From assembly GCA_012729505.1 (NCBI GenBank), contig JAAYDA010000019.1, positions 234 to 64,233 of the forward strand: 64,000 nt of DNA. The letters are read 5' to 3'. The DNA comes from Syntrophomonadaceae bacterium (GTDB lineage Bacteria; Bacillota; Syntrophomonadia; Syntrophomonadales; DTU052). Position 1 is the stretch's first letter; each line of letters begins with the position of its first letter. Below, piece after piece: positions 520 to 63,625 of the stretch. The notes under the pieces are model-generated. The model was not told where the DNA came from. It did no database searches and was given only the letters and a program-made list of their open reading frames with translations. A program made the translations under genes and the position numbers.

Positions 520-702
520 TTGAAGCGGGATTTGAAAACTAATCCAAAAGTAAATATCATATATGCTAAAAAAGAGCAGCCGTCCATTGAAGCTAACGAA
601 AAGCTTCCAGAAGGAATAACAGAATCTTTTAAGGAAGTCGTATTGATGAGGCAGGGTAAAATTCCTAAAAAGACTTGGTGGGAGGTTAGGGATGAAATAT
701 GA
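520..702 (+). CDS. putative small antitoxin partner of the downstream RelE/ParE-type toxin (60 aa, TTG start)
   Basis: RBS AAAGGAGG at 503-510 lies 9 nt before an in-frame TTG at 520. The stop overlaps the toxin start by 11 nt. The C-terminus (SFKEVVLMRQGKIPKK) resembles small antitoxin tails as I recall them. Confidence 0.45.
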   Translation: MKRDLKTNPKVNIIYAKKEQPSIEANEKLPEGITESFKEVVLMRQGKIPKKTWWEVRDEI

Positions 703-994
703 GGTCATACCAACCTCGTACTTTCTAAGAAGATTGAAACAACTTAAAGAGCGCGGCGTAGAGCGAGGAGTAGATTCCCTCGCTCTCGGTTTGCAGGAAG
801 GTATTTTTCCTGGAGTTATCATAAAGGGCACCAAAGGTAAGGTTCGCAAGACTCGCATTGAAGCTGCTGGTCAAGGGAAAAGGGGTGGCTTTCGGGTGAT
901 CTATTATCTCTGCATTGAGGAAAACAAAGAAATCTACCTAATAGACGTATACGGCAAAAATGAGAAAGAAACCATAACCCCAGCTGAGATTTAA
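692..994 (+). CDS. RelE/ParE-superfamily type II toxin
   Basis: 100 aa. The GGFRVIYY...IYLIDVYGKNEKE signature is typical of RelE/ParE-like addiction-module toxins. It is translationally coupled to the upstream small ORF. Confidence 0.7.
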   Translation: MKYEVIPTSYFLRRLKQLKERGVERGVDSLALGLQEGIFPGVIIKGTKGKVRKTRIEAAGQGKRGGFRVIYYLCIEENKEIYLIDVYGKNEKETITPAEI

Positions 995-1030
995 CAGCTT
1001 CTAAAACAACAAGAATTGCCCCTATGGTGA

Positions 1031-1066
1031 GCCAAAAGCCCCTTGTTTAAACAAGAGGCTTTTGGC
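1031..1066 (+). terminator. stem-loop downstream of the RelE-like gene
   Basis: GCCAAAAGCC...GGCTTTTGGC forms a 10-bp stem around the palindromic CTTGTTTAAACAAG. It lies about 35 nt after the stop at 994. Confidence 0.5.
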
Positions 1067-1117
1067 GTTAGTAGTTGTAGGAATTATTTCTCTGTGCTTA
1101 AAGCCTAAAAAGAAAGA

Positions 1118-1245
1118 AGACTGCCTTTGTGTAAGGCGGTCTAGTCCCGATGTAGGACCTACCGCCCCGCAAAAAACGGCAACCCCTTTATTAGTTGTAT
1201 GATATCATCTAAAAAATAATACGTCAACGTACCAAAAGGCGGGCT
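1118..1245 (-). ncRNA. copy A of a promoter-bearing ~125-nt repeat (candidate small RNA), leftward orientation
   Basis: On the minus strand: TTGACG (plus 1222-1227), a 17-nt spacer, then TATCAT (plus 1199-1204). An AAGGGGTTGCCG...GGCGG hairpin follows, then a terminal hairpin AGACTGCC..GGCGGTCT at 1118-1142. It aligns along its whole length with copies at 5000-5131 and 5805-5931. Confidence 0.4.
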
Positions 1246-1367
1246 CCTAACACTCAGATCAATAGCTGGGGCTAAAATATTTCACATATGTCCTCAGTCT
1301 TGAGTCACGAATAATCCAGTCTCTCTTGCGCATACTATGTACATAGTGTACGCTAGGAGGTGGAGGG

Positions 1368-1784
1368 ATGTTTATGCAGGACATAATGAGTGCAACAGAG
1401 GTTCGAAAAGAATGGAGCACCTGGGTTGACAGAGTGGTTAGAGAGAAGCCTTTGGTGGTAAAGCGCACCCACGATTACTTTGTAGGAATATCTATTGAGC
1501 ACCTGAAAAAACTACTTGAACCCTACAAATTTGAAATAGAAATTGACGCAGAGAAAAGCGGTGCTTTTGTGGCGTCGTTAAAAGGCTTTGACTTGGTGGT
1601 ATCCGGGCAAAATAAAGATGAGGTGCGCAAAGCTATGGCGCATGAGTTGTTGGAATACGCCCAAGATTATTTTGCGGAATTTGATCTTTATTATAAGGCT
1701 CCCAACCGGCAGGAACACTTTCCGTATTTACTTAAGGTGTTGTTATTGAATGATACTCGGGAGCTTGAAAGACTAATTGCCTAG
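1368..1784 (+). CDS. antitoxin-like protein (Phd/YefM-like N-terminus, HicB/UPF0150-like middle region)
   Basis: RBS AGGAGGTGGAGGG precedes the ATG. The N-terminus SATEVRKEWSTWVDRV..KPLVVKR resembles Phd/YefM antitoxins. No cognate toxin follows because the truncated IS66 abuts the stop. Confidence 0.4.
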   Translation: MFMQDIMSATEVRKEWSTWVDRVVREKPLVVKRTHDYFVGISIEHLKKLLEPYKFEIEIDAEKSGAFVASLKGFDLVVSGQNKDEVRKAMAHELLEYAQDYFAEFDLYYKAPNRQEHFPYLLKVLLLNDTRELERLIA

Positions 1785-2062
1785 ATGCGCCGATAGGTGA
1801 TAGTCTCCGTCTGGGGTTCTTCTGTATGGGGATTGGCGCTCTCTTCAGCCTCGTTGAAAAGGTTAAGCTGTTCGGGCGAAGACTTCTCACTGGAAGAACC
1901 AAAGCGCTTCTGATTTATTAGGCGCAACTGTTCCTCATACCATTTGAGGCGGGAATTAAGCTCGGCGTTCTGCTGTTCCAATGTTAAAATATGTTGATCT
2001 TTTTGAAGCAAAACAGTTTGAAGTTGTTCAACAAGAGCAGCAGAATTTTCATGCTTATCCAT
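1781..2062 (-). pseudogene. IS66 transposase (TnpC) N-terminal fragment
   Basis: LEQQNAELNSRLKWYEEQLRLINQKRFGSSSEK..QLNLFNEAE is the leucine-zipper N-terminus of IS66 TnpC. Only 93 of roughly 500 aa are present. Confidence 0.8.
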
Positions 2063-2137
2063 GTCTTAATTATACCGTAAAATCGGGCTTTTTGCCAGTT
2101 TAATATGCTTAAATTTCCCGAAATATCGGTATTTTTA

Positions 2138-2491
2138 TCAAAGAACCGTTCGTTCTTTTACCGCTTTATGGGCTTGCTTTTGCCGAAGCGATAATCCGTC
2201 CAGAAGCCAGCGCAGTTCCCGATAACTGATGTTAACTACTCTGGTGTTTTCATCCGGCCAGTTGAACTTGCCCCGTTCAAGACGGCGGTAATGCAGCCAG
2301 AAGCCATTATGATCCCATTGCAGGATTTTGAGCTTATTGCGGCTGCGGTTGCAAAATACATAAAGGCTCTGACTGAATGGATCCAGAGCAAATGATTCTT
2401 TGACTACTACAGCTAAAGAGTCGATGGATTTTCTAAGATCAGTGCTGCCGCAGGCCAGGTAAACCTGCCGATTTGAAATGTCACTTATCAT
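2138..2491 (-). CDS. IS66 family accessory protein Orf2 (TnpB)
   Basis: 117 aa with YLACGSTDLRKSIDSLAVVV...LYVFCNRSRNKLKILQWDHNGFWLHYRRLE, the conserved IS66 Orf2 pattern. It overlaps orf1 by 4 nt. Confidence 0.85.
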   Translation of the reverse strand: MISDISNRQVYLACGSTDLRKSIDSLAVVVKESFALDPFSQSLYVFCNRSRNKLKILQWDHNGFWLHYRRLERGKFNWPDENTRVVNISYRELRWLLDGLSLRQKQAHKAVKERTVL

Positions 2492-2799
2492 AGCGTCTTC
2501 AGAACTTTAACAACCTGGCCAAGCAGTTCATGATCAAAGCCATCTTGAACTTCGACTGAGATTTGCCCGACATGGATCATTACGGTTTTAGAATCAAATC
2601 TGGTTCTGACATCAAGCGGCAACCATTTGACTGCGGCATTGTTGGTTTTCGGTTTCGGATTTAACCGTCTGCGCCAGTAATAAAACCGGCTAACGGGTAG
2701 CGAATGCTTCCGGCACCAGGCCACGATGCTCAATCCGCTGCGTTGATAGTCCAAAAACCGTTGTTCCCATTCTTTTTGAAGATTTATCATCCTGAACAC
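2488..2799 (-). CDS. IS66 family Orf1 (TnpA, helix-turn-helix protein)
   Basis: 103 aa. WEQRFLDYQRSGLSIVAWCRKHSLPVSRFYYWRRRL is the IS66 Orf1 HTH motif. Confidence 0.8.
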   Translation of the reverse strand: MFRMINLQKEWEQRFLDYQRSGLSIVAWCRKHSLPVSRFYYWRRRLNPKPKTNNAAVKWLPLDVRTRFDSKTVMIHVGQISVEVQDGFDHELLGQVVKVLKTL

Positions 2800-2873
2800 T
2801 CCTTATTTTAAGGCTCAGGATATTCTCTCAAATCTCATTTGCTTTGTGAATGTGTCCGCGTTTTGACGCTTAC

Positions 2874-3020
2874 TATAAAGTGGAATAACCCAACAGCCTT
2901 ACTGAATTCAACCAGTATATCGACATCACTATTCTCTTTAGCTTCACCCCTGGCAAACGAACCGAATACACCAATGCGGCTCACATAGTATTGCTTGAAA
3001 AAACGGTGGGTATTCTGACC
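2874..3020 (-). pseudogene. nucleotidyltransferase (MNT/minimal NTase) gene fragment disrupted by the IS66 insertion
   Basis: The minus-strand frame reads ..KQYYVSRIGVFGSFARGEAKENSDVDILVEFSKAVGLFHF and runs straight into the IS66 IR at 2873. GSxxRGE..DxD is the NTase motif. No start codon or C-terminal half is present. Confidence 0.5.
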
Positions 3021-3145
3021 TGATTAATATGTTAGAATTAATAAATCTAAGACAGTCGGTTGAGGTAAAAGGTTTTGACCGGCTTTTTAAGTGAGGTCCC
3101 ATTACTTAAGAAAATCCGGTTCGTCCCCATAGAAAGGAATAAACC

Positions 3146-3403
3146 TTGTATTTAGGAATAATTTTTGGCTTATATGTACTGTTTACCATAGGTTTGTATC
3201 ACATACTGGTAGTGAAGCTGGAAGAACGCTACGGGGTATGGCCCTGGCTGGTTTTCCTCGTTATCGGACTGCTGTGTCTGTATTTATCCTGGCGCAGTTC
3301 CAGTGAAGCCTTATCCATGTGGTGGGGATATAACGCCTTTTTAAACCTATGGACCATCAAAGAAATGTTTGAGCAACCCAAGCGGCGTCTGAGCAAGAGG
3401 TAA
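3146..3403 (+). CDS. small predicted membrane protein
   Basis: 85 aa with two hydrophobic helices (GIIFGLYVLFTIGLY; WLVFLVIGLLCLYL). TTG start. No family recognised. Confidence 0.3.
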   Translation: MYLGIIFGLYVLFTIGLYHILVVKLEERYGVWPWLVFLVIGLLCLYLSWRSSSEALSMWWGYNAFLNLWTIKEMFEQPKRRLSKR

Positions 3404-3567
3404 AAGAACTGCCCCTGGTTCATAAATTAAGAAACGGAAGCGATCAATTTCCGGCGGGAGCATGACCGATTCGGCCCTTTGAACGGAAAGTTTGTCCTGA
3501 GACACGAACAGCAAAAACATAATGATAAGCAGCGCGATATAGACCACCGCGAACGGTACAATGGACT

Positions 3568-4488
3568 TTAATCCTTCAACAGGTTCAAGTATTGGGAAAG
3601 CCTTTCCCTTACATATTCGCCCACCATATTCACCATCGGTGACGCGTCGCTGTCCCAATAATAGCTGTCAAAGCAGGCATAATATTTTCTCCTGTCCGCA
3701 AATTTCACGTCGATGGGCGGGTAGCCCGCCTGCATCAGCATTAGATTCAATATCAGCCGCCCGGTGCGTCCATTACCGTCGATGAACGGATGAATTCCCT
3801 CAAAGTTCAGGTGGAACAGCGCCGCCGTTTCTATGGTATGCCGGTTGCCGCGGTGTAAATCCGCAACCAACCCTTCCATTTGAACCGGAACAAGATAAGG
3901 CTGGGGCGGCTCGTGATGCGCACCCATAATCTTCACCGGAATTCTCCGGTACACACCCTTGTCCTCCGGCCGATCCATCAAAACAAGGGAATGGATTTCG
4001 CGGATAATCCGTTCCGAAATCGGGACCTTATCGCTGACGAGCGAAACCACATAAAGAAAAGCGTCACGGTGCCCCACCGCCTCCAGATGGTCTTTCAGCG
4101 GTTTTTTGCCAATCGTCACACCCTCCAAAGCGAGCGCGGTTTCCTGCAGCGTGAGCGTGTTGCCCTCGATGGCGTTCGAGTTGTAGGTGAATTCCACGAG
4201 GAACTCGTCCTGCAATCGTTTCAATTCCCCGCTTGTTAAGGAACGCCGACGGTCAAGTTCCGCTTTCATTCCGTCAATAGACGCGAAAAACGCGGCATAT
4301 TGTTCCGGAATATCCTTGCCTCGCAGACTACGACCGTCAATCGGTTTTAGCGCGTCTGCCGGAATGAGGTAGGAACGTCCTTTCTGAATGGCGCCCTCTA
4401 CCCGCCCCTCGGAACAAAGCAAACGAACCCGACGGTCAGATATGCCCCACCGCTCCGACGCTTGTTTTACGGTCATGTATTGCATCAC
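3568..4488 (-). CDS. Fic/DOC family protein with N-terminal MerR/excisionase-like HTH
   Basis: It carries the canonical Fic motif HPFIDGNGRTGR. The N-terminus TVKQASERWGISDRRVRLLCSEGRVEGA is HTH-like. Confidence 0.9.
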   Translation of the reverse strand: MMQYMTVKQASERWGISDRRVRLLCSEGRVEGAIQKGRSYLIPADALKPIDGRSLRGKDIPEQYAAFFASIDGMKAELDRRRSLTSGELKRLQDEFLVEFTYNSNAIEGNTLTLQETALALEGVTIGKKPLKDHLEAVGHRDAFLYVVSLVSDKVPISERIIREIHSLVLMDRPEDKGVYRRIPVKIMGAHHEPPQPYLVPVQMEGLVADLHRGNRHTIETAALFHLNFEGIHPFIDGNGRTGRLILNLMLMQAGYPPIDVKFADRRKYYACFDSYYWDSDASPMVNMVGEYVRERLSQYLNLLKD

Positions 4489-4577
4489 TTCACCTCCTAA
4501 TCTTTATATAGTATACTACGTTAACGGAATAATATCAATGACATTTCAATAATTATACCCCTATTATTCCGACAAGG

Positions 4578-4853
4578 TTTAAAACATCCGGTTCTCATGC
4601 AATTCGCCACAAATCCTTCGGCTACATAGCCAAGGAATCAGTCAGCAGGCAATCGCAGAAAGCCTTTCCTGCTCACGCAACACCGTAGCCAAGGTGTTAC
4701 ACAGAGCGAAGGAACTTTCCATCGCCTGGCCACTGACACCAGAAACCACCGACGCAGTGCTGGACTGACTATTATATCCAGACTCCGTCACCCCGACAAA
4801 TCGTTGTCTTCCTGATAACGAGTATATCCATAAGGAGATGGCGTAAAAAGGAG
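4578..4853 (+). pseudogene. IS21-family transposase (IstA) N-terminal remnant, frameshifted and truncated
   Basis: One frame reads ..QILRLHSQGISQQAIAESLSCSRNTVAKVLHRAKELSIAWPLTPETTDAVLD then a stop. The next frame continues LLYPDSVTPTNRCLPDNEYIHKEMA then a stop. This is the IstA HTH followed by the PD.EYIHKEL region. Confidence 0.55.
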
Positions 4854-4970
4854 TTAGTCTACCCACTCCAGGATCTGAATGATCTGGGCCACGCTTCTCG
4901 CTTGATTTCCACCTTTGTCAAATTGCCCATCATGTGCTTTCGCAGCGATTATAATCGCTTTATTAAGCAT
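4854..4970 (-). pseudogene. truncated HD-domain ((p)ppGpp-hydrolase-like) gene stub, 38 codons
   Basis: RBS GAAGGGGGG precedes an ATG at 4970. MLNKAIIIAAKAHDGQFDKGG.. matches HD-domain N-termini. The frame ends exactly where the IS21 remnant begins. Confidence 0.35.
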
Positions 4971-4999
4971 TAGAAAAATCCCCCCTTCACATCACTAGG

Positions 5000-5131
5000 A
5001 ACGCCCTTTGCCTCGGTGACGTATTCTTTTTCTGATGAATATCATACAATTTATAAAGGAGTTGCCGCTTTTTACGAGGCGGTAGATCCTAAATCGTGTT
5101 AGACCGCCTTACACAATGAAGGCGGTCTTCT
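5000..5131 (+). ncRNA. copy B of the promoter-bearing ~125-nt repeat (candidate small RNA)
   Basis: GTGACG (5016-5021), an 18-nt spacer, then TATCAT (5040-5045). AAAGGAGTTGCCGC..GGCGG follows, then a terminal hairpin AGACCGCC..GGCGGTCT at 5101-5128. Confidence 0.4.
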
Positions 5132-5249
5132 TACCCCTCCTTCACAGGAATTATAACATGGTTCTACCACAAAAGAGCCCGGCATTAAACCGGGCTTTTC
5201 TGTAAATATATGATACGTTTTTCAAGGTGCTCCTTTAACATTGCGCCGT

Positions 5250-5480
5250 TTAATTATTGGAGGATTGGGTTATTGTCGTCTTAGTTAAAGGCAAAGAAAT
5301 CGCTTCCAGTACCGATAAGTCACTGGCCTTGCTTGCGTTGTCAATATCTATTCCCACTATCCTGCCTTCGGTATCATAGTCAAGCACTACGCCAGGAGCG
5401 ACTTCTTCCGAATCGGCACTGGGTCGTTCAGATAGCTCGATATAAAGGGAATCTGTTTCAGGATAATAACTTAGTTTCAT
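5250..5480 (-). CDS. DUF2283-family small protein
   Basis: 76 aa. MKLSYYPETDSLYIELSERP...GVVLDYDTEGRIVGIDI is the characteristic DUF2283 pattern. Confidence 0.7.
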   Translation of the reverse strand: MKLSYYPETDSLYIELSERPSADSEEVAPGVVLDYDTEGRIVGIDIDNASKASDLSVLEAISLPLTKTTITQSSNN

Positions 5481-5482
5481 TA

Positions 5483-5719
5483 CTACTCCTCCTTCCTAAA
5501 TCCTCTATCAGGGAAGGCATTATGTATAGTTTCGCCGTCTTCCAAGGTTACTACACGAAGGTATTTTTGAATCTCGCTGACGAAAATCCAATGACGAATG
5601 CGTCCATCATCTTGAGTTTCTTTTCGTTCTGGTTGATTGATGGCCTGTAAACACCATTCGCGTTTAATATATGAGCGTTTACGAAGAACTTGTTCCTCAA
5701 ATTATCTGGTCGTCTTCAT
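5483..5719 (-). pseudogene. DUF4258-like gene with an in-frame TAA at codon 6
   Basis: RBS GGAGG precedes the ATG at 5719. The frame reads MKTTR, stop (plus 5702-5704), then FEEQVLRKRSYIKREWCLQAINQPERKE..DGRIRHWIF..VVTLEDGETIHNAF. It ends 2 nt before the DUF2283 start. Confidence 0.5.
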
Positions 5720-5804: not shown

Positions 5805-5931
5805 CCACGCTTTTGCCTCGTTGACGTATTATTTTTTAGGTGATATCATACAATTAATAAAGGAGTTGCCGCTTGTGGTATGGCGGCAGGTCCTAATCGG
5901 TTTTAGACCGCCTTACACAAAGGCGGTCTCG
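5805..5931 (+). ncRNA. copy C of the promoter-bearing ~125-nt repeat (candidate antisense/small RNA convergent with a toxin ORF)
   Basis: TTGACG (5821-5826), a 17-nt spacer, then TATCAT (5844-5849). AAAGGAGTTGCCGCTTGTGGTATGGCGGCAGG forms a hairpin, and a terminal hairpin sits at 5905-5929. The element ends 2 nt from the stop of the convergent 28-codon ORF. Confidence 0.45.
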
Positions 5932-6018
5932 TTATTTCTTGTGCATAATACACAAAGAAATGACTCCTAAAATTACTAAGCAGAATTGAAACAATTCGCT
6001 AAATGTAATCATAGGCAT
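5932..6018 (-). CDS. 28-aa hydrophobic peptide, holin-like (type I) toxin candidate
   Basis: MPMITFSELFQFCLVILGVISLCIMHKK has one TM helix and a basic C-terminus, like the 'putative holin-like toxin' peptides of Firmicutes as I recall them. The ORF is absent from the track because it is under 60 aa. Confidence 0.45.
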   Translation of the reverse strand: MPMITFSELFQFCLVILGVISLCIMHKK

Positions 6019-6133
6019 CACCTAGCCGCACTGACCTCACCGCCAAACGGCAACTCCTGAGTTATATTAACATAATATGCTAATTTATGCTGCTGATGCT
6101 GGCATCACAATATTTCTGTTTAAAAGATAATGA

Positions 6134-8215: not shown

Positions 8216-8267
8216 GTTAGCTAGATGAGCAGACCCGCCTATAGGCGGGTCTGCTCATCTAGCTAAC
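8216..8267. terminator. long perfect palindrome; terminator after the carboxyltransferase gene
   Basis: GTTAGCTAGATGAGCAGACCCGCC TATA GGCGGGTCTGCTCATCTAGCTAAC forms a 24-bp stem. Confidence 0.7.
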
Positions 8268-29691: not shown

Positions 29692-30399
29692 CTACACTCG
29701 GTGAATATTTGATGATTCTATTTGAAAGACATCGACCTTAGCTTCAATTCTGCCAAGGGTAGTTAGGATCTGTTCGTTTATATCGTTTTGGACTTCCCTG
29801 TAGTCATACAATGCACGAATCCTTTCAATGACTTCATTCTCCATCCGCAGCTCCAGCTTATCAACCTTAGTTTCCAGTCTGGTTTGATTGGCCCCGATTT
29901 CATCGACCTTAGCTTCCAGGTTTTCAACCTTGGTCTCCAGATTATCAACCTTGATTTCCAGATTATCAAACCTAATTTCTAATCTGGCCTGATTAGCCCC
30001 GATTTCATCAACCTTAGCTTCCAGGTTTTCAAATTTAGCTTCCAGTCCAGCTTGATTAGCCCCGATTTCATCAACCTTAGCTTCCAAGTTTTCAAATTTA
30101 GCTTCCAGTCCAGCTTGATTAGCTCCGATTTCATCAACCTTAGCTTCCAAGTTTTCAAATTTAGCTTCCAGTCCAGCTTGATTAGCCCCGATTTCATCGA
30201 CCTTGGTTTCCAGATTATCGAACTTAATTTCTAATCTGGCTTGATTGTCCCCAAATTCATCAAATCTAGCTTCCAGTCCGGCTTGATTGCTTTCAATGCT
30301 ATCCATTCGCTGACCCAGAGAATTTACATCAATCTTAATAATGTCAACATCTGATACAACTTTTTCGAGGAGACTTAGAATCCTTGCCTCATTATTCAT
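29692..30399 (-). CDS. coiled-coil repeat protein of unknown function
   Basis: The start was set at MNNEARIL behind RBS GGGGGGAA. The body is made of 21-aa repeats (GANQAGLEAKFENLEAKVDEI), three of them identical. No family recognised. Confidence 0.6.
   Translation of the reverse strand: MNNEARILSLLEKVVSDVDIIKIDVNSLGQRMDSIESNQAGLEARFDEFGDNQARLEIKFDNLETKVDEIGANQAGLEAKFENLEAKVDEIGANQAGLEAKFENLEAKVDEIGANQAGLEAKFENLEAKVDEIGANQARLEIRFDNLEIKVDNLETKVENLEAKVDEIGANQTRLETKVDKLELRMENEVIERIRALYDYREVQNDINEQILTTLGRIEAKVDVFQIESSNIHRV
29991..30202. repeat. tandem 63-nt coding repeat (3.3 units, near-identical)
   Basis: Units lie at 29991-30053, 30054-30116 and 30117-30179, plus a partial fourth. All are inside the coiled-coil CDS. 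Confidence 0.9.
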
Positions 30400-40792: not shown

Positions 40793-40839
40793 TCATATAA
40801 CATAACCTTAAACAGCGCGGTAAACCCGCGCTTTTCTGC

Positions 40840-40932
40840 TTTTCATTCCCCCTTTCCCCCTTTCTCCTTTCCCCTCACCCCTTACCCCTTACCCCTTTCC
40901 CCTCACCCCTTTCGCCTCACTCCTCACTCCTT
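40840..40932. repeat. C-rich low-complexity tract (CCCTCAC/CCCTTAC/CCTTTC units), member of the mosaic repeat family
   Basis: ..CCCCTTTCCCCCTTTCTCCTTTCCCCTCACCCCTTACCCCTTACCCCTTTCCCCTCACCCCTTTCGCCTCACTCCTCACTCC.. Confidence 0.8.
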
Positions 40933-40937
40933 ACTTT

Positions 40938-40966
40938 TTGACAAGTAACGCAAATTGCGTTACAAT
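40938..40966 (+). promoter_or_regulatory. sigma-A-type promoter with embedded palindromic operator for the dinJ-like gene
   Basis: TTGACA, a 17-nt spacer, then TACAAT. The spacer holds the perfect palindrome GTAACGCAAATTGCGTTAC (40945-40963). Confidence 0.7.
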
Positions 40967-41342: not shown

Positions 41343-41607
41343 CCAAATATCATCAATTCGTGAAGAACTGGCTAATAATTTTACCGTTAAACGCATTGGA
41401 ATTTTCGGCTCATTTGCCCGAGGCGAGGAAAATGCCGAAAGTGATGTAGATATTATCGTTGAGCTTGATGAGCAAACCTTTGATCACTATATGGATTTAA
41501 AATTCCGGCTGGAAGAAGTGCTGCAGCGTCCAGTAGACTTAGTAATTGCCGATACTGTAAAGCCACGCCTTAAAGCGATTATTGAGCAGGAGGTTATCTA
41601 TGCCTAG
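41335..41607 (+). CDS. minimal nucleotidyltransferase (MNT, HEPN/MNT-type antitoxin-like)
   Basis: It has the GIFGSFARGEE..SDVDIIV motif. The start ATG 41335 overlaps the dinJ-like stop by 8 nt. No HEPN gene follows. Confidence 0.8.
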   Translation: MLNQISSIREELANNFTVKRIGIFGSFARGEENAESDVDIIVELDEQTFDHYMDLKFRLEEVLQRPVDLVIADTVKPRLKAIIEQEVIYA

Positions 41608-41609
41608 AG

Positions 41610-41815
41610 ATTCCCTCCATTACCCTCACCCCTCACCCCTCACCCCTCACTCCTCTCGCCTCACCCCTCCCGCAGTAACACGTAGTTAGTTCCACTTGCT
41701 CCCGGAAAGAGATTAAGGAATTAAGGAAGTTCGACGCTCCACGTCGAACCAAGCGAGGAGCACAAATCTCTTAACAAGATTTGGCTCCCGCCTGCCTCAC
41801 CCCTCCGCCTCACTT
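41610..41815 (+). repeat. mosaic structured repeat: C-rich tract + inverted M2 fragment + M1 double hairpin + C-rich tract
   Basis: M1 is GGAATTAAGGAAGTTCGACGCTCCACGTCGAACCAAGCGAGGAGCACAAATCTCTTAACAAGATTTGGCTCCCGCCTG (41717-41794). Related copies lie at 47294, 55848(-), 58503(-) and 63525. Confidence 0.85.
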
Positions 41816-42228: not shown

Positions 42229-42885
42229 ATGATGAAGAAGGAAGGAACCGAAAACATTAATACCCCCGCCAAGCTCCTGAAAATTGCGGCTACCGGTGTG
42301 ATGATAATAGCCTTTACCGCTGGTTCTTTACACCTGGCCACTACCCAATCTTATTTTACCGACAAAGAAACAGGCTTCGCCTCATTTACTCTGGAGGTAA
42401 AACACTCTCAGCATAATTTAGCCGAGCAACTGGACCTTGGGACTAGCAGCACTCCCGGTGAAGAACCAAGCGCTCCCAGCGGAGGCTCAGTCAACCCCGG
42501 CAATGACGGCGACACCGGCGGAGGCGACAATGACGGCAACCCCGACACTGGCGACAACGACGGCGACACCGGCGGAGGTGACAATGACAGCAATACCGGC
42601 GGAGGCGACAACGACGGCAACACCGGCGGAGGCGACAACGACGGCAACACCGGCGGAGGCGACAACGACGGCAACACCGGCGGAGGCGACAGCGGTAGCA
42701 CCGGCGACAGCGGTAGCACCGGCGACAGCGGTAGCACCGGCGACAGCGGTAGCACCGGCGACAGCGGTAGCACCGGCGACAGCGGTAGCACCGGCGATAG
42801 CGGTGGCGGCAGCGACAGCGGTGGCGGCAGCGACGGCGGTGGCGGTAGCGACGGCGGCGGCGGCAGCGACGGCGGCGGCGAATAA
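42229..42885 (+). CDS. secreted protein with SipW-type signal peptide followed almost entirely by Gly/Asp/Asn/Ser/Thr repeats
   Basis: A TM segment is followed by ATTQSYFTDKE, like the SipW-cognate signal motif. A short strand GFASFTLEV comes next. The rest is (GDNDGNTGG)n, (DSGSTG)6 and (GGGSD)n. Confidence 0.6.
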   Translation: MMKKEGTENINTPAKLLKIAATGVMIIAFTAGSLHLATTQSYFTDKETGFASFTLEVKHSQHNLAEQLDLGTSSTPGEEPSAPSGGSVNPGNDGDTGGGDNDGNPDTGDNDGDTGGGDNDSNTGGGDNDGNTGGGDNDGNTGGGDNDGNTGGGDSGSTGDSGSTGDSGSTGDSGSTGDSGSTGDSGSTGDSGGGSDSGGGSDGGGGSDGGGGSDGGGE

Positions 42886-42901
42886 GGAGGCATCCCTGTA
42901 A

Positions 42902-43532: not shown

Positions 43533-44189
43533 ATGAAAAGGAAGATACTGTTTGGATTTCTGTTAATTAGCCTTCAGAGTTTTATGGTAGGAGGCGGCAC
43601 CATGGCTTACTTTACATCCGATGCCACTCTCGCTTCCACTGCTTTTAATTTCAGTACAGTGGACATAAAAATCGTAGAACCCGCTGCTCCCCAGTGTGGC
43701 GGCGGTGGCGGCCAGCAGAGCGCCGCATGGGAAATCACAAATGTCGGAGATCAGGATGTTCAGCTTCGGGTGAAGGTAACAGGGAGATTTGAAAATAATG
43801 AACTCAATACGATGGATACGGAAGAGATAGTTAATCTTACTGGTGAAGCCGACCTCATGAAAGGACCAGGAGGACCAGGAGGACCAGGAGGACCAGGAGG
43901 ACCAGGAGGACCAGGAGGTCCAGGAGGTCCAGGAGGTCCGGGAGGGCCAGGAGGGCCAGGTGGTTCATCCGAGCCTCCCACAGTTGATCTGGTGCCTTGT
44001 AATGGCTGGTATTTAGAAAACGGGTACTATTATTACGATGGTATATTACCCATGGGTGACTCGGTTCCCTTTAGTCTCACATTGAATAAAAGCGGAGGCA
44101 GCACAGGCACCTACAACTATAATCTTGATATCGAAGCCCAAGCCTTGCAGACCGTTAATGAGCCCCAGTGGACAGACGTCAGCTTTTAA
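43533..44189 (+). CDS. TasA/camelysin-like secreted protein with internal (GPG)n linker
   Basis: It has a SipW-type signal ([12 protein letters not shown]). It contains the run GPGGPGGPG... (ten GPG units). The C-terminal [12 protein letters not shown] is like the TasA-family end motif. Confidence 0.65.
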
Positions 44190-44309: not shown

Positions 44310-44396
44310 ACAGATAAAGGCAAACCTGCCGAAAGACAGGGACGCAAAGCTATAGGGCCTTTCTGAAAGCAGAATGGCAGCCTGGCCGCCGATAAT
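44310..44396 (+). promoter_or_regulatory. c-di-GMP-I (GEMM-I) riboswitch
   Basis: AAAGGCAAACCTGCCGAAAGACAGGGACGCAAAGCTATAGGGCC....GGCAGCCTGGCCGCCGATAA matches the GGCAAA..GAAAG..GGACGCAAAGCC..GGGTTRCCGA core. It ends about 30 nt before the 44427 start. Confidence 0.8.
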
Positions 44397-47235: not shown

Positions 47236-47455
47236 GCATTAGTGAGGCGTAAGGAGTAAGGCGTAAGGCGTTAGGTGTTAGGAGAGATGGGGTAATTAAG
47301 GAAGTTCGACGCTCCACGTCGAACCAAGCGAGGAGCACAAATCTCTTAACAAGATTTGGCTCCCGCCTGAACGCTCCACGTCGAACCAAGCGAGGAGCAC
47401 AAATCTCTTAGCAAGATTTGGCTCCCGCCTGCCTTACCCCTCTCTCCTCACCCCT
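47236..47455 (+). repeat. mosaic structured repeat: G-rich tract + M1 with internal partial duplication + C-rich tract
   Basis: GTGAGGCGTAAGGAGTAAGGCGTAAGGCGTTAGG.. is followed by M1 at 47294-47368. A second copy lacking the first ~16 nt lies at 47369-47433, followed by CCTTACCCCTCTCTCCTCACCCCTCA. The two arms are inverse-complementary in composition. Confidence 0.85.
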
Positions 47456-50570: not shown

Positions 50571-50690
50571 TCCCCCCATTCTCCTCCTTCTCACCCCTCA
50601 CGGTCCCCATCTGCGTAAATCTGCGTTAATCTGCGTCTTCGTTCACCCTTTCGCCTTTCGCCTTTCGCCTCACTCCTAACTCCCTCTTGC
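50571..50690. repeat. mosaic repeat fragment (C-rich tract + ATCTGCGT units + TTCGCC units)
   Basis: ..CTCACCCCTCACGGTCCCCATCTGCGTAAATCTGCGTTAATCTGCGTCTTCGTTCACCCTTTCGCCTTTCGCCTTTCGCCTCACTCC.. is the reverse complement of modules at 63230-63290. Confidence 0.8.
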
Positions 50691-50730
50691 ATAATTATTT
50701 TTTTCTGCTAAAATTAGATATAAGTAAAGT

Positions 50731-50812
50731 TGATAAAGGCAAATTCGTCGAAAGGCGGAGACGCAAAGCCACGGGCCTAAGACCGGAAGGTTATGGTCGC
50801 CGGGTTGCCGAT
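50731..50812 (+). promoter_or_regulatory. c-di-GMP-I (GEMM-I) riboswitch, first of a tandem pair
   Basis: AAAGGCAAATTCGTCGAAAGGCGGAGACGCAAAGCCACGGGCCTAAGACC..GGTCGCCGGGTTGCCGATAA aligns closely with the Vc2 aptamer sequence as I recall it. Confidence 0.9.
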
Positions 50813-50869: not shown

Positions 50870-50904
50870 ATCCGACTCTTTGCGTAAAAAGCGAATAGCA
50901 AAAC

Positions 50905-50986
50905 CGATAATGGCAAATCCGTCGAAAGGCGGAGACGCAAAGCCACGGGCCTAAGACCGAAAGGTTATGGTCGCCGGGTTGCCGAA
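50905..50986 (+). promoter_or_regulatory. c-di-GMP-I (GEMM-I) riboswitch, second of the tandem pair
   Basis: AATGGCAAATCCGTCGAAAGGCGGAGACGCAAAGCCACGGGCCTAAGACC..GGTCGCCGGGTTGCCGAAG is nearly identical to the first aptamer. Confidence 0.9.
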
Positions 50987-55829: not shown

Positions 55830-55950
55830 AAAAAGTGAGAAGTGAGGGCAGCGGGAGCCAAATCTCTCTAAGGAGATTTGTGCTCCCCGCTTGGTTCGAC
55901 GTGGAGCGTCGAACTTCCTTATATTAATGTTACCGAAAACGGGGGGAAGG
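55830..55950 (-). repeat. mosaic structured repeat (M1 in reverse orientation plus flanking modules)
   Basis: Plus 55848-55920 is the reverse complement of M1 (..GGGAGCCAAATCTCTCTAAGGAGATTTGTGCTCC..GGTTCGACGTGGAGCGTCGAACTTCCTTA). CCGAAAACGGGGGGAAGGG follows it. Confidence 0.85.
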
Positions 55951-58384: not shown

Positions 58385-58575
58385 TTTGCCGTAACATTTC
58401 GCTGCCGAAAACGGGGGAAAGAGGACGCAGATATAAAAAGTGAGGCGGGAGGCGGGAGGCGGGAGGAGAAAGGCGAACAGCACGGAGTTAGTTCCGACGC
58501 AGGCAGGCGGGAGCCAAATCTTTTTAAGAGATTTGTGCTCCTCGCTTGCCTCACACCTCACTTCTTAACACACTC
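58385..58575 (-). repeat. mosaic structured repeat (partial M1 lacking hairpin 1, plus G-rich GGGAGGC units)
   Basis: CCGAAAACGGGGGAAAGAGGACGCAGAT..GTGAGGCGGGAGGCGGGAGGCGGGAGG..GTTAGTTCCGACGCAGGCAGGCGGGAGCCAAATCTTTTTAAGAGATTTGTGCTCCTCGCTTGCCTCACACCTCAC. Confidence 0.8.
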
Positions 58576-63114: not shown

Positions 63115-63625
63115 ATAGGCGAGAGGCGTGAGGCGGGAGGAGTGGAGCACGGAGGCCGAAACCGAGCAGATGAATTTGCCGGTTCTCATTCCGGGAGCAA
63201 GTGGAATTAACCACGTGTTACTGCGAAAGGCGGGAGGTGTGAGGCGTGAGGCGAAAGGCGAACGAAGACGCAGATGGGGACCGTCAGGGGAGGGGCGTGG
63301 TTAGTTCCGACGCAGAGACCGTTGGGATGAGGGCCGAGCAAACTCCTGCGAAGGTGAGGTCGGAGAGCAGCCGAAGGACAGGAGGTCCTGAGTCCGCCTC
63401 CTGAGCCATGGAGGGCGAATTGGCGGTGTGCTGCTCGGAGACCGAAACCGAGCAGATGAATTTGCCGGTTCTCATTCCGGGAGCAAGTGGAATTAACCAC
63501 GTGTTACTGCTGAAGTAAACTTGTAAGGAATTAAGGAAGTTCAGCGCTCCACGCTGAACCAAGCGAGGAGCACGAATCTCTTTAGGAGATTCGGCTCCCG
63601 CCTGCCTCACGCCTCACCCTCTCCA
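63115..63625 (+). repeat. ~510-nt block made only of mosaic repeat modules (G-rich tracts, two direct M2 copies, M1)
   Basis: M2 (CCGAAACCGAGCAGATGAATTTGCCGGTTCTCATTCCGGGAGCAAGTGGAATTAACCACGTGTTACTGC) occurs at about 63147-63215 and about 63442-63510. M1 lies at 63525-63604 with compensatory stem changes. Confidence 0.85.

Follow-up and report, generated by a model that had tools for sequence, protein, structure and literature searches.

A stretch of approximately 270 base pairs (bp) at positions 5814-6088 of the DNA analysed here is probably a compact type I toxin-antitoxin (TA) module of the bsrG/SR4 kind. The DNA, which we call the window, is a segment of 64,000 nucleotides (nt) from a Syntrophomonadaceae bacterium (contig JAAYDA010000019.1, positions 234 to 64,233). 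The module joins a gene for a membrane peptide of 26 residues to a convergent gene for an antisense RNA of about 85 nt, and both the transcripts and the toxicity of the peptide are predicted. When the window was compared by blastn with the corresponding loci of relatives, similarity was limited to 5814-6088, and because it ends there in all loci the module can be regarded as a discrete unit of about 270 bp. The source organism of the window is represented only by short metagenome contigs.

The module is present in at least 16 species-level genomes and in at least 29 units, each unit being a copy of the antisense RNA gene. Its carriers include Syntrophomonas species, other Syntrophomonadaceae, Pelotomaculum, a metagenome-assembled genome (MAG) of the Moorellales and two Bacillota MAGs, and it is also found in digester metagenomes. 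Genomes often hold two to four copies, frequently in tandem. The convergent arrangement of open reading frame (ORF) and unit is kept in all loci, and among the matches listed a convergent ORF of 25-27 codons is intact in 18 of 29 units.

These relatives were collected with a DNA-pattern scan of one genome per species, and a covariance model was then built from 19 units. About 80% of the genome matches listed for the first pattern were chance occurrences in high-GC genomes, and the covariance model gave no match in those that were searched. The model search confirmed the copies found by the pattern and added copies that the pattern had missed, with full-length relatives scoring 68.6-104 bits and a divergent copy (L059 copy 2) scoring 52 bits. 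Since the first pattern fixed the sequence of the 5' stem-loop of the antisense RNA, the invariance of that element in the first set carries no information. Divergent copies came solely from the model search and from a metagenome scan anchored on the toxin leader.

Organisation of the convergent gene pair

The antisense RNA, or antitoxin, would be transcribed from a plus-strand promoter at 5821-5849 (TTGACG-17-TATCAT with a TG-extended -10 element, 10/12 matches), the layout of which is kept in relatives. From this promoter and a terminator, the RNA is predicted to span 5856-5940. The covariance model matches 5850-5945 with 103.7 bits, and the predicted fold has a free energy of -38.6 kcal/mol (z = -4.7; the unit RNAs range from -4.7 to -6.1). 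The RNA contains two hairpins. The first, S1 (5861-5894, plus strand), is a GC stem of the form AGGAgUUGCCGCU...GGCGGCAGgUCCU with arms AGGAgUUGCCGCU and GGCGGCAgUCCU. The second, T1 (5905-5929), is shared by both strands; on the plus strand it is terminator-like, is followed by CGTTATTTCT and ends 2 nt from the toxin stop codon. The promoter, the GC hairpin and the terminal hairpin described in an earlier note on this DNA, as well as the distance of 2 nt between the end of the unit and the ORF stop on the opposite strand, were all found where that note had placed them.

All units have in common a -35 element TTGAC(G/A), a TG-extended -10 element, S1 about 10 nt past the -10, a short linker, T1 and a U-rich tract. 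Compensatory changes in T1 among relatives include G-C to A-U, A-U to G-C and swaps of inner pairs. With its G.U pairs, S1 has a mean stability of -16.5 kcal/mol versus -9.1 for its antisense, and this large difference indicates selection on the plus-strand RNA. The antitoxin U-tract is the antisense of the Lys/Arg codons for the basic tail of the toxin, so this stretch is under double constraint. The unit was unmatched on either strand by the Rfam antitoxin families RatA, SprA1as, RNAII, Sok and others at E <= 10. As expected of a type I system, the locus carries a cis-encoded, convergent gene, furnished with a promoter and a terminator, whose predicted antisense RNA can pair with the toxin mRNA.

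Two further ideas about the unit were considered and set aside. The short reading frames that follow AGGAG (MWYGGRS, MAAGPNRF) are not conserved in the other two copies of the unit in the window or in relatives, and a third hairpin or alternative antitoxin pairing (GGUC...GACC) is not kept in loci L061, L073 and L086.

On the minus strand, the ORF listing gives 5932-6021, with 29 residues from a GTG, and the earlier note began the ORF at an ATG at 6018 (5932-6018, 28 codons). The ORF is real, but its length is better taken as 26 codons. Two loci, L081 and L086, have the upstream ATG in another frame, and L123 has none, so we place the toxin start at the second ATG (6012); relatives have a conserved Shine-Dalgarno (SD) sequence GGGAGGTGAT 7-8 nt upstream of this codon. 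The resulting peptide, MITFSELFQFCLVILGVISLCIMHKK (5932-6012, minus strand, with the stop codon TAA at 5932-5934), is predicted to have a single transmembrane helix and a basic tail.

Intact homologues number 18, among them MVSWPELLSFCLLIVGVVSLCLKHKK, MITYGELYQFCLVILGVISLCIMLRR and MVNWMELFSFIVVIIGVISLCNSCRK. Residues E6, F10, G16, S19 and L20 are invariant across the 18 intact ORFs, and the window peptide retains all of the invariant and near-invariant residues. Among the homologues, variable sites at codon positions 1, 2 and 3 number 15, 12 and 23 of 25 codons, and the mean ratio of nonsynonymous to synonymous differences per site is about 0.37, with synonymous sites near saturation. This pattern of substitution indicates that the toxin ORF is under purifying selection and evolves as a protein. 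The window peptide had no match in a search of NCBIfam. By tblastn it found nothing in a plasmid collection and one insignificant match (E = 5) in a phage collection, and viral contigs scanned for the T1 core gave 0 matches.

A putative toxin promoter lies at 6064-6072 (minus strand). It has an extended -10 element, TGTTAATAT, and no clear -35, and would start transcription at about position 6058. Relatives carry TGnTAAAAT 6-9 nt upstream of (A)GGAG, likewise without a -35. The toxin promoter was not called in a consensus promoter scan of the window. A strong antitoxin promoter paired with a weak toxin promoter is typical of type I systems. The leader then begins with an element, L1 (AGGAGTTGCCGTTTGGCGGTGAGGTC, 6033-6058, minus strand), that is a short same-sense copy of S1 and is complementary to 5861-5894 in the toxin transcript. 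L1 and the plus-strand unit share AGGAGTTGCCG..GGCGG..AGGTC in the same sense, as the earlier note had observed, and form an inverted repeat in the DNA. With at most one mismatch, the 11-mer AGGAGTTGCCG occurs 6 times in the window versus 1.0 expected, a count that 0 of 100 shuffles reach. A Shine-Dalgarno sequence AGGTGAT (6017-6023, minus strand) is positioned 4 nt upstream of the ATG at 6012, where relatives have GGGAGGTGAT.

The probable 3' end of the toxin transcript follows from what lies beyond T1. On the toxin strand, T1 is followed in nearly all loci by A-rich sequence of the AAAACC type and not by a U-tract, and the next U-tract falls after T2, the antisense of S1 within the toxin 3' untranslated region (UTR). 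In the absence of a U-tract behind T1, the minus-strand transcript is expected to run on to the U-rich stretch after 5861. The toxin transcript therefore most likely spans the whole antisense RNA. The earlier note had proposed that the two transcripts share the hairpin and overlap there at their 3' ends; the sharing holds, whereas the overlap would most likely extend to about 85 nt and not be confined to the hairpin.

A probable closing helix in the predicted toxin mRNA

Models of the toxin mRNAs were made to run from the predicted start as far as the U-tract after T2, and in all 19 of them a helix between L1 and T2 closed the minimum-energy fold. In these models, the SD is held in a local hairpin, the AUG is in a second stem and T1 is intact. 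The toxin-sense stretch of 211 nt from the window has a predicted free energy of -91 kcal/mol (z = -10). In a gap-free alignment of the paired segments, 97.6% of cells pair, as opposed to 21-56% in slid controls. Three pairs are changed on both sides, and all one-sided changes in L1 are C to U, which keep a wobble pair with T2.

Divergent sequences provide a more demanding view of the same helix. In L059 copy 2, which was found through the model search, the 3' arm of S1 is GGCGGTTATTCC and the leader is GGCGGTTATTCAC, where GGCGGTAGGTCC and GGCGGTTGGTCAC are present elsewhere. The metagenome scan was anchored on L1 only and required a non-G at the first G of GGTCAC. It yielded a new class with an L1 ending in TTAGTC, and T2 is GGACTAGCCGCC or GGACTGACCGCC in every complete locus of this class. 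Here a G-C pair is replaced by A-U, and a former U.U mismatch is also repaired. Among the metagenome loci, T2 variants restore pairing, with AGTC facing GGACTAG and ATTC facing GGAATAA. Thus, L1 and T2 covary in three sequence classes, and for the two variant classes the most stable L1:T2 duplex is the cognate one. The repeat of the unit in the leader most likely arises because one segment of the toxin 3' UTR has to pair with the leader as well as with the 5' stem of the antitoxin. This complementarity accounts for the resemblance of the two 5' regions better than the common origin that the earlier note had suggested for them.

From these elements, and by analogy with SR4, a course of events can be proposed for which we infer the transcript ends, the toxicity, the binding and the decay pathway. 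The weak extended -10 promoter on the minus strand would produce a toxin mRNA from about 6058 that carries, in order, L1, the SD and the ORF, whose 26 codons specify a single-pass membrane peptide ending in a basic tail. Pairing of L1 with T2 would close the mRNA by a long 5'-3' helix like that of bsrG, with the SD and start codon in local stems. The strong plus-strand promoter would supply the antitoxin of about 85 nt, composed of S1 and T1 and fully able to base-pair with the toxin 3' UTR. On in silico evidence, contact between the two RNAs might first be made through their T1 loops, after which the antitoxin would zip along the 3' UTR, displace L1, create a substrate for RNase III and make SD sequestration slightly tighter. 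If the antitoxin acts on the toxin mRNA in this manner, toxin should be made only when the short antitoxin is lost.

Comparison with curated families is consistent with this assignment. Hol_Tox (PF16935), the holin-like toxin family to which the earlier note had pointed, is the sole Pfam match of the peptides, apart from a weak match to CD225 (E 0.11) in one member. It is matched by 11 of 17 family members, with a best E of 9.5e-4. BsrG, a member of this family with a 100% tblastn match in SPbeta, scores 34.5 bits on the same model. The Rfam BsrG model aligns end to end with the toxin mRNAs of relatives, with its outer helix on L1/T2, its SL1 on the SD hairpin and UGAUGCnnAUG matched. Given two independent sub-threshold signals, one from protein and one from RNA, together with the shared architecture, distant homology to bsrG is likely; these scores do not demonstrate membership in the curated families. 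The proposal of the earlier note that the locus is a type I TA candidate like txpA/RatA and bsrG/SR4 has therefore gained support from its presence in at least 16 genomes, from coding selection, from a covarying hairpin and from the sub-threshold matches to Hol_Tox and Rfam BsrG.

A number of results weigh against this interpretation. The window peptide reaches only 14.4 bits on Hol_Tox (E = 0.035), which is below the gathering cut-off of 23.3, and an hhalign comparison of the peptide family with BsrG was not significant. The relatives' toxin mRNAs score 16.5-26.5 bits on Rfam RF01412 BsrG, below the cut-off of 55, and the window toxin mRNA has no match to this model at E <= 10. T2, a weak long-loop hairpin from which the toxin 3' end is deduced, was not called by a terminator scan of the window. 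The covariation of L1 with T2 represents only about three independent events, and gene conversion between inverted repeats could have produced it, although wobble-only changes and differing loops favour RNA pairing over gene conversion. The window leader lacks the SD-sequestering hairpin (CACTTCCC-loop-GGGAGG) that is found in all other intact loci, and regulation or activity of this copy may differ as a result. Blocking the 3' UTR leaves the predicted unpaired probability of the window SD essentially unchanged (0.27 to 0.30). Even in relatives, where the SD lies in a stem (CACUUCCC/GGGAGGUG) and its predicted unpaired probability falls from about 0.2 to 0.11 upon such a block, the predicted effect of the antitoxin on SD accessibility is small.

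The absence of the SD hairpin bears on whether the window locus is still active. The window leader reads GGTCAG-TGCGGCT-AGGTGAT, versus GGTCAC-TTCCC-loop-GGGAGGTGAT in relatives, and codons ~15-19, not an upstream anti-SD, are the predicted pairing partners of its SD and start codon. Control of this locus may thus depend solely on decay driven by the antitoxin, or the locus may be heading to inactivation. It is even conceivable, though unlikely, that the locus is a decaying and inactive copy in which the ORF is intact and the leader is damaged, with the SD hairpin deleted and the SD shortened. The lack of an Rfam BsrG match in the window would fit this explanation, as would the state of the two sister copies, both of which are clearly degenerate. 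However, the conserved peptide residues are kept, and L1, T2, S1, T1 and the two promoters remain intact. Predictions also still place the SD and AUG largely in base pairs, within an extended stem inside the ORF, and the identical sequence appears in several independent metagenome assemblies.

The repeat unit is present three times in the window. Copy C (5810-5945, plus strand) is the unit described above and the sole window copy with an intact ORF. The antitoxin unit of copy A (1102-1238, minus strand; 85.9 bits with the covariance model) has the promoter TTGACG-17-TATCAT at 1227-1199, carries GGGG where the others have GGAG, and has a C.A mismatch in T1. Its toxin remnant (..ALVVVGIISLCLKPKKKED, 1062-1121, plus strand) has its N-terminus swapped for a neighbouring terminator, and its stop codon is gone. 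Copy B (5005-5144, plus strand; 86.2 bits) is an orphan antitoxin unit with the promoter GTGACG-18-TATCAT at 5016-5045. Its S1 and T1 are intact, and the downstream toxin ORF is absent. Copies A and B are decayed or orphan antitoxin genes, and they may still be transcribed. Elsewhere, toxin remnants accompany the units of L071, L102, L109 and L019, and three further units (L050, L052 and L079) join copy B as orphans without any toxin. Loss of the toxin with retention of the antitoxin is typical of decaying TA loci.

A different significance for these orphans has been considered, which we also regard as unlikely. The antitoxin 5' hairpin might mimic the toxin leader and act mainly by strand displacement on the closed 5'-3' helix, such that the module would operate as an unusually small switch with three states: a closed, inert form, a form bound by the antitoxin and degraded, and an open form that is translated. 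Promoter-bearing orphan antitoxins beside intact modules would then be kept in trans as immunity or anti-addiction genes directed at related modules, and those of window copies A and B, L050, L052 and L079 would form a cross-reacting network in syntrophic Clostridia instead of being mere decay products.

Slightly harder to sustain is the possibility that the toxin mRNA stops at T1, leaving an overlap of about 25-35 nt in a type I system that has no 5'-3' helix. Under this arrangement, L1 and S1 would both be hairpins, whether 5' stabilisers or protein-binding sites, that share a common origin and are kept alike by gene conversion. T1 is indeed the sole hairpin called by the terminator scan, S1 and L1 each fold alone, and both begin, close to the predicted 5' end, with AGGAG, which resembles an SD. 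Nonetheless, we consider it doubtful, given that the toxin-strand T1 lacks a U-tract in nearly all loci. Furthermore, nearly every difference between L1 and S1 is a C to U change, of a kind that maintains pairing with T2 and not sequence identity, and their loops differ, which argues against simple homogenisation. Selection on L1 only, in the metagenome scan, also recovered compensating changes in T2.

Genomic setting and other features of the window

The module is surrounded by an island of defence and mobile genes (692-5700) that includes other TA genes and fragments of the insertion sequence IS66. Its members are a RelE-like gene (692-994, plus strand), a PHD-like antitoxin gene (1368-1784, plus), IS66 fragments (1781-2799, minus), DUF4491 (3146-3403, plus), Fic (3568-4488, minus), DUF2283 (5250-5480, minus) and, upstream of DUF2283, an apparently frameshifted ORF (5483-5700, minus). 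A composite transposon formed by the inverted copies A and C was considered and rejected; copy B is repeated in direct orientation, and at the module borders the similarity to other genomes stops.

This setting is relevant to the proposal that the locus encodes either a small, conserved membrane protein with a physiological role or a weak toxin like BsrE, the level of which is tuned by the antisense RNA, without any addiction module. BsrE is toxic only on overexpression (PMC6562991), and the present module is chromosomal, with no matches in the plasmid or phage collections searched. Even so, such a role appears improbable. The module is multi-copy and often tandem, its spread is patchy, its similarity ends at its own borders, and it is located in an island of TA genes and insertion sequences. 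Decay that affects only the toxin is frequent, with 4 orphans and several remnants among the at least 29 units. Such traits point to a selfish TA module and not to a housekeeping gene. Moreover, the features that would repress expression (a weak promoter and sequestered SD and AUG) are typical of toxins.

That the unit is a non-coding repeat, such as a miniature inverted-repeat transposable element, a repeat like the repetitive extragenic palindromes or a promoter-terminator cassette, and the ORF fortuitous, might be suggested by three copies in 5 kb of which two lack the ORF, yet this is effectively refuted by protein-level conservation of the ORF across genera with synonymous variation. In addition, neither terminal inverted repeats nor target duplications accompany the unit, and the ORF has its own promoter, leader and SD in a conserved arrangement.

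Some additional observations were made near the modules of relatives. In four metagenome loci (L135:1931-2230, L136, L144 and L140), the toxin promoter, leader and first codons are joined to unrelated DNA, with no antitoxin unit after them. In L135, L136 and L144, the fusion partner is a nucleotidyltransferase-like ORF. These four loci are modules broken by rearrangement. In the Syntrophomonadaceae MAG CA_145, a group II intron (D1-D4, 150 bits; L008:6130-6423) lies about 4 kb from tandem TA modules, and in L011 a tRNA gene is located 150 nt upstream of the toxin promoter.

Several structured or repetitive elements also lie elsewhere in the window. Three cyclic di-GMP-I riboswitch aptamers on the plus strand (44310-44394, 50728-50812 and 50902-50986) exceed the gathering scores, with 66-89 bits. 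One belongs to the GGC subtype, and two stand in tandem at a distance of 174 nt. A repeat of about 50-100 nt is found at 41714-41811, 47289-47448 and 63524-63621 (plus strand) and at 55873-55921 and 58501-58553 (minus strand). It has two internal hairpins (..GTTCGACGCTCCACGTCGAAC..GAGCACAAATCTC..GATTTGGCTC..), its copies are 82-98% alike, and it usually adjoins C-rich heptad runs (40825-40943, 41597-41673 and 50620-50703). It resembles a family of intergenic repeats or else a structured RNA element. A perfect palindrome of 52 nt (8216-8267, with 26-nt arms and no spacer) separates genes for an acyl-CoA synthetase and a carboxyltransferase. Finally, long in-frame low-complexity tandem repeats at 42471-42899, 43844-43978 and 29839-30321 are built of GGC/GAC-rich units of 9/27 nt, of GGACCAGGA in 11 copies and of a 63-nt unit in 6 copies, and the ORFs that contain them probably encode repetitive surface or collagen-like proteins.

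Comparison with known type I systems

On the evidence of these sequences, we regard the module as a new compact family of a known, bsrG/SR4-like kind in syntrophic anaerobes of the Clostridia class. Reviews describe txpA/bsrG-like modules as limited to a few Bacillus species and one Paenibacillus (PMC6562991), and a literature search retrieved no paper connecting Syntrophomonas with type I toxins. The present family would extend the bsrG/SR4 design, in a minimal form of 270 bp, to slow-growing syntrophs rich in uncultured members (Syntrophomonadaceae, Pelotomaculum and Moorellales). Although the module leaves the understanding of type I systems unchanged, it adds support from natural covariation for a 5'-3' helix, for which the evidence in bsrG has so far come from in vitro probing only. 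The peptide alignment and covariance model could be used to annotate small genes that are missed by current pipelines, and a compact RNA-controlled kill switch would be a candidate genetic tool for anaerobes.

The closest parallel is bsrG/SR4, of the TxpA/BsrG group, from the SPbeta prophage of Bacillus subtilis. Probing of bsrG mRNA by Jahn and Brantl demonstrated that nt 1-35 pair with nt 232-262 to form helix P1, that SR4 has its complement in the 3' half of P1, and that SR4 binding frees the 5' end, lengthens the SD stem from 4 to 8 bp and triggers decay by RNase III (PMC3834814). Both systems have a small peptide with a single transmembrane helix, an N-terminus of the form M-x-(T/S/V)-aromatic-x-E/S-L and a basic tail, together with a convergent antisense RNA at the toxin 3' end. 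In both, the toxin mRNA has (here in silico) a 5'-3' helix to whose 3' strand the antitoxin is complementary. The bsrG SD hairpin CCCC-UAUGAAA-GGGG also resembles the CUUCCC-UAUGAA-GGGAGG of the relatives, whereas the window copy is without such a hairpin. The two systems also differ in size, with a peptide of 26 residues here versus 38 and an antitoxin of about 85 nt versus 180. The 3' strand of the helix is here the antisense of the antitoxin 5' hairpin, the toxin gene has no strong terminator of its own, overlap of the antitoxin with the ORF is minimal, and the hosts are strictly anaerobic syntrophs and not Bacillus.

Two other pairs from B. subtilis, bsrE/SR5 and bsrH/as-bsrH of the P6 and skin elements, have toxins of 29-30 residues, similar in size to the present peptide, and 3'-overlapping antitoxins that promote decay, and the structures of their mRNAs are reported to resemble that of bsrG (PMC6562991). 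Their antitoxins are longer (163-200 nt) and overlap by 100-140 bp, and our comparison with these systems is by description and not by peptide sequence. In the txpA/RatA system, too, the antisense RNA is convergent and overlaps at the 3' end, and the SD region is double-stranded. However, its toxin has 59 residues, RatA is 222 nt long, no antitoxin-induced refolding is reported, and its models gave no match here.

More distant systems resemble the module in single respects. The fst/RNAII genes (par of pAD1) are convergent, share a bidirectional terminator and have repeats near both 5' ends. The DNA repeats of par are direct, which makes its RNAs complementary at their 5' ends. In contrast, the repeats here are inverted in the DNA, and therefore the toxin and antitoxin RNAs carry the same sequence, and it is the 5' and 3' ends of the toxin RNA itself that are complementary. 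In hok/Sok and aapA1/IsoA1, a long-distance 5'-3' helix also closes the full-length toxin mRNA. The antisense RNA of those systems lies over the 5' part or the ORF, and activation proceeds by 3' trimming, whereas the antitoxin of the module described here would target the 3' strand of the closing helix.

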